Source of the DNA: a virus
Lineage: Duplodnaviria; Heunggongvirae; Uroviricota; Caudoviricetes
Strand: one strand, 5' to 3'
Virus record (IMG/VR): IMGVR_UViG_2648501839_000008
Length of the DNA stretch: 64,000 bases
Part shown: positions 47,779 through 54,679 of the stretch, in pieces
Position numbering within the stretch: the stretch's first letter is position 1
Layout of the letters: each line of letters starts with the position of its first letter
Program-made: the position numbers and the translations under genes
The notes under the pieces: generated by a model
Told to the model about the DNA's origin: nothing
What the model saw: only the letters and a program-made list of their open reading frames with translations
Database searches by the model: none

Positions 47779-49035
47779 CTATCTAGAACCACCAAGAATA
47801 ACACGGTTTTTGACTGGATACCTACGATGTACTGGATAGCCCAATGCGTCTGCACTATGCTCAATGCCACCTGTCTTATCCATATCTCGTGTTCCAGGCT
47901 TGTAGATGACTTTTTCCAGTGAATCAATCAAATGCTTGCACTTCGGATCGATATACAACCGGATATCTCCAGATGCGGTCATCAGCATTCGGTTAACAGC
48001 ATTAACACGATCCGCAATTGGCGGGTGCTTTTTCGAATAATCGACACGTAAGAATCCCTTCTCTTTGAATATGTCGACGTCAGACTCCCCGCGAGCATGT
48101 TGGCGATAAGCACCTGCCGGATCTGGAAATACCGTTATCTGTGATTTCCAGCGCCAGAAGCGTCTCTCAAGCTCATCACAAACCTCTGCCGTGTTAGAGG
48201 AAAAGAGCACCAATTCATCAATTGCCCATAGCTCACCATTTGGCTGAGGTTGCAAAATTACTGAAGACATCGGGTCAATGTTGAAGTCCTGCCCTACCCA
48301 TATAGGCAACCGAGGGTTGAACTGAAGCGGTTTTACATGCACGTTACGATCGAACGGGTAGTAAACGCGCCCGGACATGTTCTCAAAGCTCGCCAGGTAC
48401 TCCTGAGCGAACGATTTCGGGTCCATATCGTTCTTAGCAGCTTCAATTTCCGCCGTAGGCACAAACGGAGAATCGGCAGTTACAAACTGCCAGCTCTTCC
48501 ACTGTCCCTTTCTTTGCAGCTCTACGTTCTGGCCTATAGTCCACAGTTTGTGAAATTCCGAGAAACCTTTTGGCGTACCAATGATAAGTGCACCGCCGCG
48601 TGTCGATGAAAGAGTAGGTCGTAACACCTTGTACCAGGTGTCAGCCTTCATATCCTGAAATTCATCAAGCACTACAAAATGCAACGCTACGCCGCGCAGA
48701 GTGTCAGGCTTATCAGCACCTTTGAGGGCGATCTCCGAACCGTTCTTCAACACGATTGTCATCGTGGTGTCGTTCTTTTTCCTAACCCACTTACGAGGCA
48801 GAACTTCCTGTAGATCGTCCCACAAAATCTGGCGAGCCATCTGGTAAGTAGGAGCGACATACCAGACCCTTTGCTTTTTTTCCTTTGCCGCCGCACGAAT
48901 AATAGTGGAGATCGACAACCGGGATTTTCCCCAGCGTCGACCAGCACAAACAACTTTAAATCGATGCGGAGACTGGAAGACTTTCATCTGTCCAGAATGC
49001 AGTTGCACAAGACTGAGCGAGGACGGGATTGCCAT
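47779..49035 (-). CDS. Terminase large subunit
   Basis: Walker A VVCAGRRWGKS near N-terminus; 418 aa; position. Confidence 0.85.
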   Translation of the reverse strand: MAIPSSLSLVQLHSGQMKVFQSPHRFKVVCAGRRWGKSRLSISTIIRAAAKEKKQRVWYVAPTYQMARQILWDDLQEVLPRKWVRKKNDTTMTIVLKNGSEIALKGADKPDTLRGVALHFVVLDEFQDMKADTWYKVLRPTLSSTRGGALIIGTPKGFSEFHKLWTIGQNVELQRKGQWKSWQFVTADSPFVPTAEIEAAKNDMDPKSFAQEYLASFENMSGRVYYPFDRNVHVKPLQFNPRLPIWVGQDFNIDPMSSVILQPQPNGELWAIDELVLFSSNTAEVCDELERRFWRWKSQITVFPDPAGAYRQHARGESDVDIFKEKGFLRVDYSKKHPPIADRVNAVNRMLMTASGDIRLYIDPKCKHLIDSLEKVIYKPGTRDMDKTGGIEHSADALGYPVHRRYPVKNRVILGGSR

Positions 49036-49667
49036 TATTCGTCCTCCCCTTCACTTCCATCATCTGTCGCATCAAATTCGCTTAGAGCTTCTTCTTCCAA
49101 CGTCTCAAGCAATTCGTCATCGATGATTTCAGGCTCGTCGTCTTCCTGACGTAATTTCGCCACCTGGGAAGGCGTAAGCTCACCAAATACCAGGTTCGGA
49201 ATTTCTTCCTCGTCATTTTCCGCATGATCCATGCCCAATGCTTTGGACGAAACTTCAAAGCATTTTGCAAGGGTATTACTGGCTCTCTGTAAGCTCTTGA
49301 GAGAATCCTCAATCGCCCCTAAAGGCTTACCCTCACGTTTGGCCGTAGTGACTTCGACCATCACCATCTGCCCCAACGCATACGCCCAGCCGTCATAACG
49401 TGTACGACGTTCTTCTATCTTTTCCGCACGGGCTTTAGCGCGAAGCTCTGCGTCAGATTTAAGAGACTCACGAACCATCTTCCCAACAGAGTCCGCGCCT
49501 TTCTCTAATCCTCGCTTTTTGAAATGTCTGGAGAGTGTTTCACGACGAATGCCGTACTCTTCCTCCAGCTTTGAGAGTGTATATTCGCCTGACGTCCATT
49601 TGGCTTCAGCTTCGGCCCACTCCGCTGGTGTCAGGCGAGTTTTTACCTCGTCTTTTTCGACCGTCAT
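49035..49667 (-). CDS. Terminase small subunit (HTH N-terminus, acidic C-terminus)
   Basis: 210 aa; start/stop overlap with large terminase; acidic tail. Confidence 0.6.
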   Translation of the reverse strand: MTVEKDEVKTRLTPAEWAEAEAKWTSGEYTLSKLEEEYGIRRETLSRHFKKRGLEKGADSVGKMVRESLKSDAELRAKARAEKIEERRTRYDGWAYALGQMVMVEVTTAKREGKPLGAIEDSLKSLQRASNTLAKCFEVSSKALGMDHAENDEEEIPNLVFGELTPSQVAKLRQEDDEPEIIDDELLETLEEEALSEFDATDDGSEGEDE

Positions 49668-49704
49668 AGATCCCTCTAAAACACACAGAGCGCGTCCATG
49701 CGCT

Positions 49705-49746
49705 CTAAAACAACTTGTTTACTGCATTTTCTAACCAACTTGTTTT
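49705..49746. promoter_or_regulatory. Two O2 palindromic operators upstream of terminase operon
   Basis: aaaacaacttgtttac (49705-49720) and aaccaacttgttttct (49731-49746). Confidence 0.45.
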
Positions 49747-49781
49747 CTGGGTTGTTTAATTAGGTCTGGGCATGTCTTATT

Positions 49782-49839
49782 AAGCCTGCTTCCGTATATA
49801 TTTAATAAGTTACTTATTATTTATATATACAGAAGCAGG
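49782..49839. repeat. 58-bp nested-palindrome element, copy 2
   Basis: gcctgcttccgtatatatttaataagttacttattatttatatatacagaagcaggtc; near-identical to 16172-16230. Confidence 0.6.
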
Positions 49840-49863
49840 TCTTTAAATAAGCTCCCAGACCGA

Positions 49864-50130
49864 TTACATCACCAGTAACTTCGCTTTGGCTCGACCTAAA
49901 GTGGTTAACCCAAGAGTTCGGCGGTGATAGCGATTGTCACTGCGTTGGCGCGTATGCCCTTTCTCCACAAGCCCCTTTTTTATCAGAGCGCGAATTGAGA
50001 ACTGGATACTTTGCTTGGTTGTCTTGTACGGCAAAACTTCAAGCAATTCGTCCAGATCAAGTAGATGACCTCGCTCATAACCGAGATTGAGCGTTTTGAT
50101 GATGTCCTTTTGTTTATCGGTTAACGTCAT
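49864..50130 (-). CDS. Small winged-helix-type DNA-binding protein, tentative
   Basis: 88 aa basic protein. Confidence 0.4.
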   Translation of the reverse strand: MTLTDKQKDIIKTLNLGYERGHLLDLDELLEVLPYKTTKQSIQFSIRALIKKGLVEKGHTRQRSDNRYHRRTLGLTTLGRAKAKLLVM

Positions 50131-50139
50131 GGCAAATCC

Positions 50140-51030
50140 TTATGCCGGTAAAGCAATTTCTAACGGTTTATCCAAAGGTTGTTTGTCGAATGCCAGCAGT
50201 GGCAGCGTGTCAGGCAGTCGACGACCAAAGTCAGGGTTTCGATACACCCCATACAACGGAGACGTAAAGCTCAGGTTGTGAATGTCCTTGAGCAACTTCA
50301 CAATGCTGGCCTCGTCCACCAGACTGTCGGCAATGTCCTGAATCGTCGTGCCACGATTCCGCCCAGCTTTTGCCAGGGAACTGTTCTTGTGGTAGTCCGC
50401 CACCAGATCACGCAGTGCACGGCGACGACGAGACTCGCTCATTGCGAACAACTCTTTGACGATCGCCTCGTTATCACCCGGGTCGGAACGGAAATGGCGC
50501 TGGAATACACGCAGTGCACTTTCATAGCTCTTCGGTCGCTCAGGGCGGATGAACTTAAACCCTGCTTTCATGGCGAAGGGATTGTATTTACTCATCGAGG
50601 ACTGGATCTCAATGATTGGCCGGTCATGCATCCTGCTAACCAGGTTAATCATTCGATAAGAGACGCCTACGCCACGATACTGAGTATCCACAACTGAGCG
50701 ACTGATCACCGCAAAGTTGTTATTCACGTACCGACCCCAGTACTGGTTAGCCACGGTGGTATTAGTGGTTGGTTTCAACTTAGGAAACATGCGGTGGCGA
50801 GGTGCCAACAGTAGTTTCGGGTAAGCCATAACCACGACGCCCACCAGACGGTCATCAAGTTCGCAGCGATAGTAAGTTGGCGCGAAAGGTTTGCCGTCTG
50901 TTTTGTAGTGAAGCGACTTAAGAGCGTGCCAGTCCTCTACAGTTCCCTTTGTAACAGTCATTCGCTCCAGAAAGTCCAGATGACGCGGAAACTCTTCAGG
51001 GCGGTAGCGTTTAATGATGATGTCCGTCAT
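50140..51030 (-). CDS. GNAT-like acetyltransferase-fold protein with C-terminal extension, tentative
   Basis: VVDTQYRGVGVSYRMIN resembles GNAT acetyl-CoA-binding motif A; 4-nt overlap with upstream ATPase gene. Confidence 0.4.
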   Translation of the reverse strand: MTDIIIKRYRPEEFPRHLDFLERMTVTKGTVEDWHALKSLHYKTDGKPFAPTYYRCELDDRLVGVVVMAYPKLLLAPRHRMFPKLKPTTNTTVANQYWGRYVNNNFAVISRSVVDTQYRGVGVSYRMINLVSRMHDRPIIEIQSSMSKYNPFAMKAGFKFIRPERPKSYESALRVFQRHFRSDPGDNEAIVKELFAMSESRRRRALRDLVADYHKNSSLAKAGRNRGTTIQDIADSLVDEASIVKLLKDIHNLSFTSPLYGVYRNPDFGRRLPDTLPLLAFDKQPLDKPLEIALPA

Positions 51031-51692
51031 GAATGGACCTCATCGTGACTACCATTGTGATATTCCACCTTCACGCGTTCTTTGTAGTGCTTGGTGATCT
51101 GCATATCCGGGCGCAGCGCGTTCTTCAGGTCTTCGTGAGTCGTCGCCACCATTACCGTCGCACCAACCTTTCGAGCGGCACGCTGGAGGTTAGACGCCAC
51201 AACCTGAGCGGTTACACGGTCGAGAACAGCGCCGAACTCGTCAGCAGCCCACACTTTAGCGCCTGACTCAATCAGTTTGGCAATCTTGAGACGATATTTC
51301 TGGCCGTCTGACATTTCAGAAGGCTTGCGAACAAACAGATATGCATCGTTCAGACCAGCCATAGATAACAACCCAAGCGCATCACTGGTCGTTTTGCCCA
51401 ACTGATCGATGACGTTAACCTCATTATCGAAGGTAAAATCATCGATGGAGGCTACAGACAGCCCTTCATCCTTCATCTGTCGTTGCAACTCGCGCAGCAC
51501 AACGGATTTGCCGGAACCGGATTGGCCGGTGATGTACACCACATCGCCCTGCTTCACTTCCAGCTCCAGATTGTCGTAAAGCGTCCACTCTTTTTCGTCC
51601 AGGCCAAGCCCGAACGACTCAGCGATTTCCAACGTGCGCGTGGTTTTATTTACGCGTGTCTGAAACGATACGTTGATGATGTATTTGCTCAT
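51027..51692 (-). CDS. Compact ABC/SMC-type ATPase
   Basis: Walker A ITGQSGSGKS; signature-like SDGQKYR; Walker B VWAADEFGAVLD; H-loop-like TTHE; 221 aa. Confidence 0.6.
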   Translation of the reverse strand: MSKYIINVSFQTRVNKTTRTLEIAESFGLGLDEKEWTLYDNLELEVKQGDVVYITGQSGSGKSVVLRELQRQMKDEGLSVASIDDFTFDNEVNVIDQLGKTTSDALGLLSMAGLNDAYLFVRKPSEMSDGQKYRLKIAKLIESGAKVWAADEFGAVLDRVTAQVVASNLQRAARKVGATVMVATTHEDLKNALRPDMQITKHYKERVKVEYHNGSHDEVHS

Positions 51693-52390
51693 GCAGCCAT
51701 CTCCCCGGAAGAGATCTTCTCCGCATATGCCACAAATGCGTCTACCCCGCTTTCTCCCGTCATTTCTTCCATGTGGGCAAGCAAATCACCAACAACAATG
51801 GCAGAGCCAGCAGGGAGCGTTTTAAAGCCCAATACGTCGACAACACGTACTTCTTCCGCTGCAACTTCACGACTGATCTCGGTGTGTTCATCCTTCTGTC
51901 GTTTAGTTTCTTCGCCAAGATCGATAACTAGCGAGTCGGTGTCCATTTCTTCTGTCATACTGCCAACGAGAACATTCAACTCACGCTCTTCAAAGCCGAA
52001 AACCTCGATATCGTCCAGAACAAGCGACTCAAGCTCTTTCTGTAGCTTAATTGCATCGTAATCAATGCTGGCAAGTCGGTTATCTTCAAGGCGCTTCGCA
52101 CGAACCTCGTCATCACTGAGATCATCGCGAACAATAACCGGTACGCGCTCAAGTCCAGCAAAAATTGCAGCCTCACGGCGGCCGTGGCCAGTAATAATTA
52201 CGTCGTTCTTATCGACCGTAATTGGCTGGTCAAATCCGCGCTTTTTAATGGCTGCGGCTAGATCTCGGATCTGCTGTTCATCATGCTTTTTGGCATTCAT
52301 CTCATAGGGAATAAGATCTGCCGGGTCGCGATATACGATTTCAAACTTTTTGGTCATTACATACGCTCCTTGTAGTAGTCGACCAGCCAC
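51689..52390 (-). CDS. ParB/Sulfiredoxin-fold domain protein (second copy)
   Basis: ParB N-terminal-domain-like motif VIITGHGRREAA; acidic C-terminus. Confidence 0.6.
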   Translation of the reverse strand: MAGRLLQGAYVMTKKFEIVYRDPADLIPYEMNAKKHDEQQIRDLAAAIKKRGFDQPITVDKNDVIITGHGRREAAIFAGLERVPVIVRDDLSDDEVRAKRLEDNRLASIDYDAIKLQKELESLVLDDIEVFGFEERELNVLVGSMTEEMDTDSLVIDLGEETKRQKDEHTEISREVAAEEVRVVDVLGFKTLPAGSAIVVGDLLAHMEEMTGESGVDAFVAYAEKISSGEMAA

Positions 52391-53037
52391 ACCAGAGCCT
52401 CACCAGCGTTCTCCATTTCATTACCGGTGTTAATAGCCTGCTCTTTGATGATGTTTTTTATGGTTTCTGCAACACGATCTGACGCATCGAAAGTTACTTT
52501 GAAGCGCATGGTCTGATGTTCCGCACCCACACGTTCGGTTTTCTCTCGTTTGTCGGTATCGACAGGCTCATCACTACCACGAGACAACGCCTCCAGTGCT
52601 TCAAGGTCGATTGCCGCCTCTTTTGCTAAAACCATCGAGATTTCGTCGTCATACGGGGCGATTTCAGACAGTTGATAGTCAAGTTCTGACTGAATTTCTT
52701 CAATGAAGCGTTGCAATGCGATTTGGTCGTCTTCACCGTATCGCTCGTTGTCCACCAGTGACATCTGTTTAGCTACGACATCGCTAATTTTGCCCACAGA
52801 AAGCACCGGAACCGTTGAAATTCCTTGCTCAATAGCAGCACGCCAGCGATGTTCGCCGCCGAGGATTTCAAAAAATCCATCTTCAAGTTCACGAGCCAAA
52901 ATTGGCTTAAAAAAGCCCAATTTTTCGATAGAACCTTTCAGTTTTTCAAAATTCTGCGCACCAACCGAATTGGTGTTCCAGGTATTCGGGCGAAGGTTGG
53001 CAACATCAACCTGCAAAATCGTGATTTTTACATCCAT
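52357..53037 (-). CDS. ParB/Sulfiredoxin-fold domain protein
   Basis: ParB N-terminal-domain motif FFEILGGEHRWRAA. Confidence 0.65.
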   Translation of the reverse strand: MDVKITILQVDVANLRPNTWNTNSVGAQNFEKLKGSIEKLGFFKPILARELEDGFFEILGGEHRWRAAIEQGISTVPVLSVGKISDVVAKQMSLVDNERYGEDDQIALQRFIEEIQSELDYQLSEIAPYDDEISMVLAKEAAIDLEALEALSRGSDEPVDTDKREKTERVGAEHQTMRFKVTFDASDRVAETIKNIIKEQAINTGNEMENAGEALVWLVDYYKERM

Positions 53038-53054
53038 TTTATTGCTACAATCTA

Positions 53055-53076
53055 CTAGGTATTCACTTACTTATTA
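53055..53076. promoter_or_regulatory. O1 palindromic motif in divergent promoter region
   Basis: ctaggtattcacttacttatta between ParB-like gene start and helicase gene start. Confidence 0.35.
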
Positions 53077-53119
53077 TAATAGCCAAATAACATACAAAAG
53101 GCACTAAGGAAAGAGGTTT

Positions 53120-54679
53120 ATGACTGTTCGGATTGTATCTAACGCAGTAAATGCGCTTATTTCTGGCGCAGATGACAAGGTAAAGCAACTGGTGCAGCAA
53201 ATGTTGAGCTACGAAGTCGAGACTGGCGACTGGAAGGGCACAAGCACGATGTTCAACTGGAGTAAAAACTCGTTCCCTGCTGGCTTTGCCAAGCCTGTAG
53301 CGGCGAACTTGAACAAGGCGGGCATCAAATGTGTTCATATCCGCAAAGACAAAGCCCCGGCGCTTGGTAAACCAAATCCGGCGGTTAACCCATTCCCATA
53401 CAATCCTGATTATGCGTATCAGGATCAGACTGTGGAAACACTGGTTCGAGAGGGAATGATGATTGCGCAGATCGCTACTGGTGGCGGGAAATCTAACGTT
53501 GCCTGCAAAGCAGCTGCACGTATCGGTCGAATGACATTATTTTTAACAACCCGCTCTGTTCTGATGTTTCAAATGGCCGAAAACTTCCAGAGATCCATCG
53601 ACTACCGCGCCGAAAATGGCGAACCGTGGTTAAAAGACCAAAAGGTTGGAGTCATTGGCTCGGGTGAGTTCCAGGTATCACGACATATCAACGTCGCTAC
53701 AGTTCAAACTCTTGCAAGTTTCCTCGAAGAACCACCACGCGATGCAACACCAGATAAGAAAAGCTACCACCTCAAACGTCGGGAGTTGGTGAAACGCTTC
53801 CTTTCAAGTGTCTCTCTTCTTATTCTGGAAGAGGCGCATGAGTCTTCAGGCTCAAATTTCTATGACATCGCCAGATTATGTGTGAACGCGGACTATCGTC
53901 TGGCGCTTACAGCCACGCCGTTCATGAAGGATTCGACGGAAGCCAACATGCGCCTGATGGCGGTGGCCGGGCGAATTGAAATTAAAGTCACAGAAAAGTA
54001 CCTGATTGATCGAGGCATTCTGGCAAAGCCGTACTTCCTTTATCATAAAGTTGCCTACAAGCCAGACGAGGCCAGAATCAAGGCCGAACTTGCCAACAAA
54101 CACCTCAATTTTAGAGTTGGTATGAGCACCGCCTACCAAAAGGCTTATCAGTTGGGGATCGTGTATAATTTGGGACGTAACGAGGCCATTGTTCGCGAAG
54201 CATTGCTCTATAAGCAACATTCTCTCAATTGTATGACTCTGGTTCGTCTTAAACGCCACGGGCAAATCCTGATGGAAATGATGAAAGAGTCCGGCCTTAG
54301 AGTTGACTTCATCTATGGGGAATCTAACCAGGCGACAAGGCAAGCAAAGCTGAACAGTTTAGCGTCTGGAGAAATAGATGTTTTAATAGGCTCGACTATT
54401 CTGGATGTCGGTGTTGATGTGCCAAGCGTTGGTGCGGTCATTCTTGCTGGTGGTGGGAAAGCAGAAGTTGAAATGAGGCAGCGTGTCGGTCGTGGCTTAC
54501 GAGCCAAAAAAAATCAGGCAAACGTGTGTTTTATCACTGATTTCATTGACATTAGCAACAAATACCTGTTGTCTCACTCTTATGAGCGAAAACACATCAT
54601 CGACACCACACCTGGCTTTGCAGAAGGTGTATTGCCTATTGATGGAGCATTCGATTTTGGAGTTCTGAAACGAGATTAG
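53120..54679 (+). CDS. Superfamily 2 DNA/RNA helicase (DEAH-like)
   Basis: Walker A ATGGGKS, motif II LILEEAHES (DEAH-like), C-terminal helicase-domain-like region with arginine motif QRVGRGLR. Confidence 0.75.
   Translation: MTVRIVSNAVNALISGADDKVKQLVQQMLSYEVETGDWKGTSTMFNWSKNSFPAGFAKPVAANLNKAGIKCVHIRKDKAPALGKPNPAVNPFPYNPDYAYQDQTVETLVREGMMIAQIATGGGKSNVACKAAARIGRMTLFLTTRSVLMFQMAENFQRSIDYRAENGEPWLKDQKVGVIGSGEFQVSRHINVATVQTLASFLEEPPRDATPDKKSYHLKRRELVKRFLSSVSLLILEEAHESSGSNFYDIARLCVNADYRLALTATPFMKDSTEANMRLMAVAGRIEIKVTEKYLIDRGILAKPYFLYHKVAYKPDEARIKAELANKHLNFRVGMSTAYQKAYQLGIVYNLGRNEAIVREALLYKQHSLNCMTLVRLKRHGQILMEMMKESGLRVDFIYGESNQATRQAKLNSLASGEIDVLIGSTILDVGVDVPSVGAVILAGGGKAEVEMRQRVGRGLRAKKNQANVCFITDFIDISNKYLLSHSYERKHIIDTTPGFAEGVLPIDGAFDFGVLKRD

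Follow-up and report, generated by a model that had tools for sequence, protein, structure and literature searches.

Organization and setting of the operon

The subject of this report is a block of genes in a 64,000-nucleotide stretch of DNA from a tailed virus (Caudoviricetes; IMG/VR record IMGVR_UViG_2648501839_000008), called the window below. A preliminary description, made from the letters of the DNA, had singled out four overlapping minus-strand genes, encoding two proteins with a ParB-like N-terminal domain (ParB1 and ParB2 in the following), an ABC-type ATPase and a GNAT-like protein, as almost certainly one operon. The four open reading frames (ORFs) lie where they had been placed (Table 1), and a reading of the junctions confirms their translational coupling. 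The ParB2/ABC and ABC/GNAT junctions are both ATGA, giving the two 4-nt overlaps reported earlier. The 34-nt overlap reported for ParB1 and ParB2, however, stems from a GTG extension and is really of 1 nt: this junction is TAATG, and ParB2 starts at the ATG at 52357, which is preceded by the Shine-Dalgarno sequence AGGAG and is also the start annotated in Escherichia phage Cyrano and Salmonella phage SSU5. A fifth gene, which had been overlooked, begins 9 nt past the GNAT stop and has its own Shine-Dalgarno sequence (TAAGGA). The minus strand from 49864 to 53037 is one translationally coupled five-gene operon, located between the terminase genes and a divergent helicase gene.

This region of the window is 99.3% identical to Cyrano and 85% identical to SSU5. 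In addition, 780 PLSDB plasmids match the region (719 with at least 80% of the query covered), and these come mostly from Klebsiella, Escherichia, Enterobacter, Yersinia and Salmonella. The source is therefore an SSU5-group phage-plasmid of E. coli. Compared with SSU5, synonymous and non-synonymous codon differences number 92 and 4 in the GNAT gene, 55 and 3 in the ABC gene, 87 and 27 in the ParB1 gene, and 88 and 23 in the ParB2 gene. The genes are real and under strong purifying selection, with ABC and GNAT the most constrained. PHROGs 723, 930, 293 and 886 already cover the four-gene block, without a function, and PHROG 900 covers the fifth gene; the Cyrano and JGI annotations carry the COG-style name 'ABC-type ATPase fused to a predicted acetyltransferase domain'.

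Table 1. Genes and other features of the operon region, and related loci referred to in the text. Positions are those of the window, or of the locus named.
Feature	Position or locus	Strand	Length	Basis or remark
ParB1	52357..53037	-	226 aa	Pfam ParB_N; motif GGEHRWRAA
ParB2	51689..52357	-		Pfam ParB_N; motif GHGRREAA
Stand-alone ABC nucleotide-binding domain (ATPase)	51027..51692	-	221 aa	Pfam ABC_tran
GNAT-fold protein, predicted acyl-coenzyme A (CoA) transferase	50140..51030	-	296 aa	Structure and profile searches
Small, probable winged-helix gene, fifth in the operon	49864..50130	-	88 aa	PHROG 900
Imperfect inverted repeat between operon end and terS	49763..49861		39-nt arms	Repeat search; central palindrome AATAAGT-A-ACTTATT
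TerS-like DNA-binding protein, downstream neighbour	49035-49667	-		PHROG 867
Terminase large subunit (TerL), downstream neighbour	47779-49035	-		Terminase_6N/6C
Superfamily 2 (SF2) DEAD/ResIII helicase, divergent neighbour of ParB1	53120..54679	+		Pfam ResIII, DEAD, Helicase_C
ORFs inserted at the ABC/GNAT junction in relatives	L002 1235-1489 (SSU5_128); L003 5646-5981; L004 5393-5895; L055/L060		185 aa (L055/L060)
Cellular ASCH/GNAT-ABC loci	L110, L115 (Thermus); L116, L117 (Archaeoglobi); L118 (DPANN)		GNAT-ABC 585-680 aa

Conservation in related phages

Relatives of the GNAT protein at ~41% identity are found in phages of Pseudomonas (nickie group), Rhizobium (RHEph10 group), Stenotrophomonas and Xanthomonas, with genomes of 105-120 kb, which are not known to be phage-plasmids. 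All of these relatives show the same gene order, namely divergent helicase, ParB, ParB, ABC, GNAT, (small gene), TerS-like, TerL and portal, and a tblastn comparison gives each gene of the block an orthologue in register. Among the intact orthologues, taken from nickie, RHEph10 and BUCTxx99 (the genes of JGB6 are fragmented), identity to the window proteins is 56-58% for TerL, 53-58% for ABC, ~40-52% for the helicase, 41-43% for GNAT, 38-43% for ParB2, 31-38% for ParB1 and 27-32% for TerS. The same synteny is present in at least 30 IMG/VR contigs and in one Chitinibacter genome, and the divergent helicase adjoins ParB1 in all loci where ABC and GNAT are separate genes (the split type). The fifth gene occupies the same position in 22 IMG/VR loci and in the Stenotrophomonas and Xanthomonas phages. 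Co-conservation had been put forward as a check on the module, and the genes are indeed strongly co-conserved; the synteny across so many phages therefore makes the block a core feature of a broad phage lineage, and not a plasmid-maintenance add-on.

The ABC/GNAT junction is an insertion hot spot. The two genes are coupled directly by ATGA in the window, and in relatives unrelated small ORFs of 84, 111, 116, 132 or 185 aa split ABC from GNAT (Table 1). The insert of RHEph10 is a DUF2829 protein.

The two ParB-like proteins

ParB1 and ParB2 match Pfam ParB_N with E-values of 3.2e-13 and 1.3e-8, respectively. They had been described as paralogues on the strength of two motifs, both of which are present (Table 1), and the relationship is borne out by 33% identity over 116 aa (E 2e-7). 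The ParB N-terminal fold, the GxxRxxA box II and an ENxxR-like box III place them in the ParB/Srx superfamily. ParB1 consists of a ParB/Srx N-terminal NTP-binding domain (residues 1-100), three helices, an acidic disordered linker (residues 154-172) and a C-terminal domain of one strand and two helices, ribbon-helix-helix-like, with the near-invariant motif MRFKV. Its homologues were searched for with a divergent orthologue as the query; ParB1 itself returned only near-identical Klebsiella variants. The ParB1 fold resembles KorB and PadC, and the protein also matches Spo0J and Noc. The matches of Spo0J, Noc and chromosomal ParB to both proteins cover the NTP-binding domain only, with PDB matches ending at about residue 100. 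The helix-turn-helix (HTH) domain HTH_ParB (PF17762) was not found in ParB1 or ParB2 by Pfam search, with the C-terminal parts searched up to E 10, and the C-terminal domains gave zero Pfam matches even at that level. In contrast, HTH_ParB is present in separate 416-461-aa ParB proteins of two related loci, L038 and L048.

ParB2 matches PHROG 930 with an E-value of 1e-112, and aligns with the N-terminal ~150 residues of ParB-methyltransferase fusions, both in PHROG 498, 'DNA methyltransferase' (1.7e-31), and at the N-terminus of PADLOC MTase_II, PDLC03229 (2.9e-17). With the ParB-N partner of ABC-GNAT in Streptococcus prophage 315.4 it shares 44.6% identity over 112 aa, so that ParB2 represents the general type of partner, ParB1 being an addition specific to this lineage.

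With its near-canonical GERRWRAA-like box and a fold matching KorB and PadC, ParB1 could be imagined to act in plasmid partition or in KorB-like global transcriptional control, with ABC and GNAT as passengers; in keeping with such a role, seven promoter-like sites, among them those upstream of parA and terS, carry the palindrome AACAAnTTGTT. I consider this very improbable. The preliminary description had already argued that the block was unlikely to be the partition locus, on account of partition genes at 17985-19012, and these are present, as a ParA-like gene (18344-19012, Walker A KGGPGKST) and a small partner (17985-18344). A cognate ParA is absent from the operon, where the neighbours are helicase, ABC, GNAT and terminase. 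The partition locus is rejected because ParA lies 31 kb away with its own partner, neither ParB has HTH_ParB, and identical synteny extends to archaeal viral contigs and to the phages of four further genera. Transcriptional control fares no better: AACAAnTTGTT is not kept in those relatives, and ABC and GNAT are the most constrained genes of the block rather than passengers.

The ABC, GNAT and winged-helix proteins

The ATPase matches Pfam ABC_tran (E 5.8e-13; 50.1 bits, against a cut-off of 25) and has a complete set of motifs: Walker A GQSGSGKS, signature SDGQ, Walker B VWAADE, D-loop LD and H-loop TTHE. Its matches in the PDB (181 ABC chains) and in NCBIfam are to ABC nucleotide-binding domains (NBDs) only, the best of them being transporter NBDs. 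The earlier label of an ABC/SMC-like ATPase is therefore right as to ABC and wrong as to SMC: an SMC/Rad50-like ATPase is rejected, as transporter-type NBDs match best, SMC_N reaches only E 0.004 and a coiled coil is lacking. Equally, an ABC transporter or auxiliary metabolic gene is rejected. No membrane protein gene that might provide a permease or substrate-binding partner was found in or beside the operon, in the window and in 80 related loci, and the partners of the ABC domain, by fusion or by coupling, are GNAT, ParB and polymerases. The product name 'ABC transporter' has been carried over during annotation.

For the GNAT protein, structure and profile searches alone were informative, as Pfam (a sub-threshold GNAT match, E 0.037), NCBIfam and PDB sequence searches gave no usable match. 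It has a GNAT fold over residues ~20-165, as the first reading of the gene had suggested, followed by a helical C-terminal domain (165-296), and the intact acyl-CoA-binding motif A (RGVGVSYR, of the pattern R/Q-x-x-G-x-G/A) and motif B (NPFAMKAGF) place it within the superfamily. The top viral structural match is Mom, of whose family the protein is not a sequence member. The fifth-gene protein matches PHROG 900 (E 2e-45) and, weakly, Sta1/Lrs14 and LexA_DNA_bind, and is probably a winged-helix DNA-binding protein.

None of the four proteins of the original block shows terminase homology in Pfam or PHROG beyond trivial P-loop similarity. In PADLOC, only generic P-loop matches and matches to the ParB-N part of methyltransferases were obtained, with none for the GNAT protein; a known defence system is rejected, as no defined system is matched. 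Profile searches, another check proposed at the outset, thus match no protein to a characterised packaging, partition or defence complex.

ABC and GNAT as one enzyme family

A search of 1.84 billion representatives with a GNAT profile found 867 relatives. Beyond the close family, the domain lies C-terminal to ABC_tran in proteins of ~370-500 aa, the profile covering residues ~200-480 of ~480-aa proteins with an N-terminal ABC_tran domain. One such fused protein (P0162) spans both window genes in an alignment at 35% identity (E 1e-60), and the A3 consensus of the fused proteins has the window's motifs in both halves, with the window ABC protein orthologous to the N-terminal half. Judged from these alignments, the ABC and GNAT proteins of the window are the split form of a large ABC-GNAT fusion family. 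Variants of the fusion include a LAGLIDADG intein within the ABC domain (P0164) and an ABC-GNAT-TFIIB protein. Moreover, a fusion of the opposite order, GNAT-ABC (COG2401/MK0520 type), is found in Pyrodictiaceae, Desulfurococcales, Archaeoglobi, DPANN and Thermus. Two independent fusion orders argue strongly for an obligatory cooperation of ABC and GNAT.

Genomic partners of ABC-GNAT

The neighbours of the ABC-GNAT genes were surveyed in 80 IMG/VR loci (42 split, 38 fused), using a simple ORF caller and purpose-built hidden Markov models, and annotated phages were inspected. A ParB gene lies within 5 kb in 31 of the 42 split and 13 of the 38 fused loci. A ParB-N protein of ~180-200 aa flanks the fused gene in Streptococcus prophages, Leptospira LE4, Gordonia phages of the Axumite type, Rhodococcus phage Jace and several metagenomic loci, and in one locus (L048 6389-8389) a single 666-aa protein comprises ParB, ABC and GNAT. 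DNA polymerases are also partners: a 1260-aa PolB-ABC-GNAT fusion (L015-L017, 8001-11783) recurs in a phage replication module in ENA, JGI and Logan contigs, and in L033 (6974-10827) ABC-GNAT is stop/start-coupled to UDG-PolA, beside a BT1/MFS folate-biopterin-type transporter. TerL is the commonest neighbour family, in 8-11 of 23 non-redundant fused loci and in 14 of 16 split clusters. ABC-GNAT comes straight after TerL in probably archaeal viral contigs, including contigs of Bathyarchaeota and Thaumarchaeota metagenome-assembled genomes, and the two genes overlap by 4 nt in L103 and nearly abut in L026.

Other neighbours point to the making of acyl groups. A formyltransferase with PF00551 (Formyl_trans_N) follows ABC-GNAT in three unrelated lineages, namely Gordonia phages, Burkholderia phage phiE255 (gp30) and Porphyromonas phages; a PF00551 formyltransferase has been predicted to act in DNA hypermodification, as a dPreQ1 formylase. 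An aspartate decarboxylase and a family III CoA-transferase follow it in Jace and in L100, and this pair would plausibly make beta-alanyl-CoA, an acyl donor for GNAT. As to annotation, gene 3 of Gordonia phage Axumite (L008 1805-2452) is named 'tRNA-methyltransferase' and matches Formyl_trans_N (PF00551) with an E-value of 1e-8.

Among the neighbour families of the fused viral genes, ASCH domains rank second, level with ParB_N, in 3 of 23 non-redundant loci, and one is found near the module in Streptococcus prophage 315.4. Among cellular GNAT-ABC genes, ASCH is immediately adjacent in five of ten loci (Table 1), always above the Pfam threshold. The ASCH gene is either divergent from the cellular GNAT-ABC gene or convergent and overlapping with it, making a conserved and apparently undescribed pair. 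ASCH proteins hydrolyse N4-acylcytosine (PMC6972931) and have been reported to erase N4-acetylcytidine (ac4C) from tRNA (2026 preprint). The cellular ASCH/GNAT-ABC pair suggests a writer/eraser relationship for N4-acylcytosine.

The association with terminase genes calls for a separate consideration. A packaging-accessory role is the strongest alternative to DNA modification: with TerS and TerL, the operon proteins would recognise or process the genome terminus, or regulate the terminase (for example by acetylation), with no base modified. This would account for the position of TerL as commonest neighbour, translationally coupled in L103 and near-abutting in L026, for the place where the operon ends in the window, ~200 nt ahead of terS and at the long inverted repeat in which the records of SSU5 and Cyrano terminate, and for the conservation of ABC and GNAT, which is as strong as that of TerL. 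Nevertheless I regard it as unlikely, because ABC-GNAT is found far from terminase as well, in replication modules, in the PolB fusion and coupled to PolA, and at a Mom-like position after the tail fibres in phiE255 and the Porphyromonas phages. It is not obvious what part in packaging the neighbouring enzymes for donor synthesis and formyl transfer would play, the Thermus and archaeal cellular homologues have no terminase, and clustering with terminases is already known for DNA-modification genes (PMC13229309).

A candidate DNA acyltransferase

The partners of ABC-GNAT are concerned either with DNA transactions (ParB, polymerases, terminase) or with the making and removal of acyl groups, and a DNA acyltransferase is therefore proposed. 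The acylation of DNA bases is inferred from the linkage of competent ABC and GNAT domains to the machinery of DNA. The operon may encode an acyl-CoA transferase complex, ATP-dependent and assisted by ParB, whose substrate would be the DNA of the phage itself after replication and before packaging; I prefer this explanation, tentatively, at somewhat less than even chances. Of the three functions initially offered for the module (nucleic-acid modification, packaging, or defence/anti-defence), the first now has the strongest support, and its link to the packaging genes is clear.

GNAT domains that modify nucleobases are known in Mom, TmcA/NAT10 and Elp3, and TmcA ties the modification to ATP hydrolysis. 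In the mechanism I envisage, ABC and GNAT would form a heteromeric enzyme, in which ATP-driven dimerisation of the ABC protein would engage DNA and expose a base, and the GNAT protein would move an acyl group from acyl-CoA onto an exocyclic amine. The N4 of cytosine, with N4-acylcytosine as the product, would be the most specific and the least certain guess at the target. The two ParB-like proteins may load or hold the enzyme on double-stranded DNA, and the winged-helix protein could bring sequence specificity or regulation. As an outcome, the modified virion DNA would resist host nucleases, or would be marked for packaging. A ParB fold is known fused to methyltransferases and to an acetyltransferase (PMC12704722).

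A wider proposal is that ABC-GNAT is a new class of ATP-dependent nucleic-acid acyltransferases, with which tailed viruses of bacteria and archaea would write an N-acyl mark on double-stranded DNA (dsDNA). The likeliest mark would be N4-acetyl- or N4-aminoacyl-deoxycytidine, with variants based on formyltransferase or beta-alanyl-CoA, ParB-like proteins as loaders, and ASCH proteins as erasers or readers. In this full form the proposal is doubtful.

A number of points weigh against DNA acylation. ParB is not obligatory, as 25 of the 38 fused ABC-GNAT genes have none within 5 kb, and neither a donor-synthesis gene nor an ASCH gene stands beside the operon in the window. In fold, the GNAT protein resembles many other GNATs no less than Mom, and proteins and small molecules are far commoner GNAT targets than nucleic acids. 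The TerL-level conservation of ABC and GNAT is explained by an essential part in morphogenesis at least as readily as by an accessory part in anti-restriction. Finally, the known activities of ASCH proteins concern nucleosides and tRNA, so that the family could be directed at RNA.

The corresponding explanation would make the complex an RNA cytidine acetyltransferase for tRNA or rRNA, like TmcA/NAT10, with ASCH proteins as erasers and a phage version that tunes translation. Several features agree with it: the ASCH/GNAT-ABC pair is conserved in Thermus, Archaeoglobi and DPANN, ASCH proteins being the reported erasers of tRNA ac4C; SSU5-like and nickie-like phages have tRNA genes, and Cyrano encodes MetRS; and the combination of an ATPase with a GNAT domain follows the logic of TmcA. 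Even so I find it quite unlikely, since tRNA genes occur in the fetched flanks of only 3 of the 80 viral loci and lie 43 kb from the operon in the window, and it is with ParB, DNA polymerases and terminase that ABC-GNAT is fused or coupled, rather than with RNA enzymes. An RNA target may suit the cellular family of reversed order without holding for the phage module.

Equally, the substrate could be protein. A DNA-tethered protein acetyltransferase, a viral analogue of a histone acetyltransferase complex, would be brought by ParB to acylate DNA-bound proteins, whether host nucleoid or defence proteins or the phage's own replication and packaging proteins. It would perform the commonest activity of GNATs. 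The chemistry suggested by the donor genes (of beta-alanyl-CoA type), by the formyltransferases and by the ASCH partners is, however, that of nucleobases or small amines rather than lysine acetylation, and no candidate protein substrate is co-conserved, which leaves this improbable.

Repeats and other features of the window

The gap between the operon and terS is 196 nt. Besides the inverted repeat (Table 1), it contains a hairpin resembling a terminator (49686-49707), a mere ~20 nt ahead of the ATG of terS. In GenBank, the linear records for SSU5 and Cyrano stop within the repeat, at window position ~49802/3, and RHEph10 has a comparable repeat with 34-nt arms at the equivalent place. Proteins could bind at the repeat, or it could act as a (bidirectional) terminator or mark the genome terminus or pac/cos region. 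The 'DTR (long)' termini of Nican01 are uninformative about physical ends, because the record is rotated to start at TerL.

The sequence GTTACTTATTAT occurs at 49809-49820, in the centre of this terS-proximal repeat, at 53066-53077 and at 16196-16207, that is three matches against 0.31 expected (1 of 100 shuffles reached three). The copy at 53066-53077 has one mismatch, lies in the divergent promoter region of ParB1 and the helicase, and shares bases with a perfect TATAAT (53073-53078). The motif may bracket the operon as an autoregulatory site, or may be there by chance.

The 11-bp palindrome AACAAnTTGTT has its seven copies at 15293, 19049, 49709, 58850, 59386, 60289 and 63987, with a further, degenerate copy at 49734. 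Among the 5-n-5 palindromes of the window it ranks first in frequency, with 19 matches at up to one mismatch against 2.1 expected. It is usually followed by TTCT and, ~12 nt on, by a TAATTAT-like sequence, at promoter-like intergenic sites that include those just upstream of parA and terS. It is probably an operator or promoter element of an SSU5-group regulator. As a parS-like site of the module it is rejected, being enriched in the window and absent from nickie, RHEph10 and the Stenotrophomonas phages.

The lowest G+C content of the window (0.318, against ~0.46) is found at 16001-18000 and corresponds to a 567-aa ORF (16239-17942, minus strand) with the P-loop GDWGVGKTH, beside the par locus. 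This ORF looks horizontally acquired and is possibly a KAP-type NTPase or defence gene. Four tRNA genes, Ser-tga, Thr-tgt, Tyr-gta and Asn-gtt, are located at 6575-7228 on the minus strand, and the Cyrano annotation has three in the matching region. Outside the window, genomes of the SSU5 group have a second 'ABC transporter ATP-binding protein' of 214 aa (Cyrano OV696614, 74621-75265), among ThyX, polynucleotide kinase and DHFR.

Implications

The combination of proteins was not recognised as a described system in the preliminary description, and this holds: full-text literature searches found no published description of the module or of ABC-GNAT function. If the proposed function is correct, phage DNA modification would gain an enzyme class and probably a chemistry (acylation) that are new to it, and the recently shown role of ParB-like proteins as partners of DNA-modifying enzymes would be extended. 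Should N-acylation of dsDNA prove true, viruses would have their first described system of enzymatic DNA acylation, carried by common phage-plasmids of clinical Enterobacterales (pHCM2/pMT1/SSU5 group). A function would also be given to genes mislabelled 'ABC transporter' or 'partition protein' in 780 PLSDB plasmids, at least 538 IMG/VR contigs and archaeal viral contigs. Modified DNA would affect escape from restriction and CRISPR, the host range of resistance-carrying phage-plasmids, and sequencing and base-calling. For the uncharacterised COG2401 proteins of thermophiles, the link to ASCH yields a writer/eraser hypothesis that can be tested. Convenient models are at hand in Cyrano and SSU5, phages of E. 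coli and Salmonella that can be grown and mutated.

Comparison with known systems

The operon shares with ParABS and KorB the ParB/Srx N-terminal NTP-binding fold, ParB1 matching Spo0J, Noc, PadC and KorB. Unlike these systems, it has no ParA, ParB HTH domain or identified parS, and it adjoins the terminase genes. The cellular COG2401 (MK0520-like) proteins have the same two domains, with detectable homology in both; they are arranged in the reverse order (N-terminal region, GNAT, ABC; 585-680 aa), are found without ParB or terminase, and are likewise uncharacterised.

Two GNAT systems act on nucleobases. TmcA/NAT10 couples an NTPase to GNAT for base acetylation, and the ASCH link suggests that the chemistry may be the same. 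The ATPase of the operon is however an ABC NBD and not of the helicase type, there is no tRNA-binding domain, and the genomic links are to DNA enzymes. Phage Mu Mom, a GNAT-fold DNA adenine methylcarbamoylase, has no detectable sequence similarity to the operon protein, the likeness of fold being generic for GNATs, and Mom has no ATPase or ParB partner, unlike the operon.

Other systems join a ParB-like protein to a DNA-modifying enzyme. In the ParB-N/DNA methyltransferase fusions (PHROG 498, PDLC03229), ParB-N is attached to a DNA-modifying catalytic module; the operon has no methyltransferase domain, and its catalytic partner is in trans and of a different superfamily. DpdA inserts preQ0 into DNA in complex with DpdB (PMC10516641), which has been described as a ParB-like ATPase (PMC12839542), so that here too a base-modifying enzyme with a ParB-like partner carries out post-replicative DNA modification. 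The reaction is transglycosylation there and predicted acyl transfer here, ATP use would fall to the separate ABC domain in the operon, and no sequence relationship of the operon proteins to DpdA was found. A further parallel is with the phage ParB-like proteins without HTH that are required by TET/JBP-type thymine dioxygenases acting on dsDNA and that co-occur with terminases (O'Toole et al., PNAS 2026, PMC13229309). In this 5mYOX-ParB system, a short phage ParB, made of an NTP-binding N-domain and a C-terminal dimerisation domain with no classical HTH, lies beside a DNA-modifying enzyme, often near terminase. In the operon, by contrast, the partner is a predicted ABC ATPase plus GNAT acyltransferase and not an Fe/2OG (iron/2-oxoglutarate) dioxygenase, and there are two ParB paralogues. 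A phage ParB partnered with a DNA-modifying enzyme beside terminase is thus already known; what would be new here is the enzyme class and, possibly, the chemistry.

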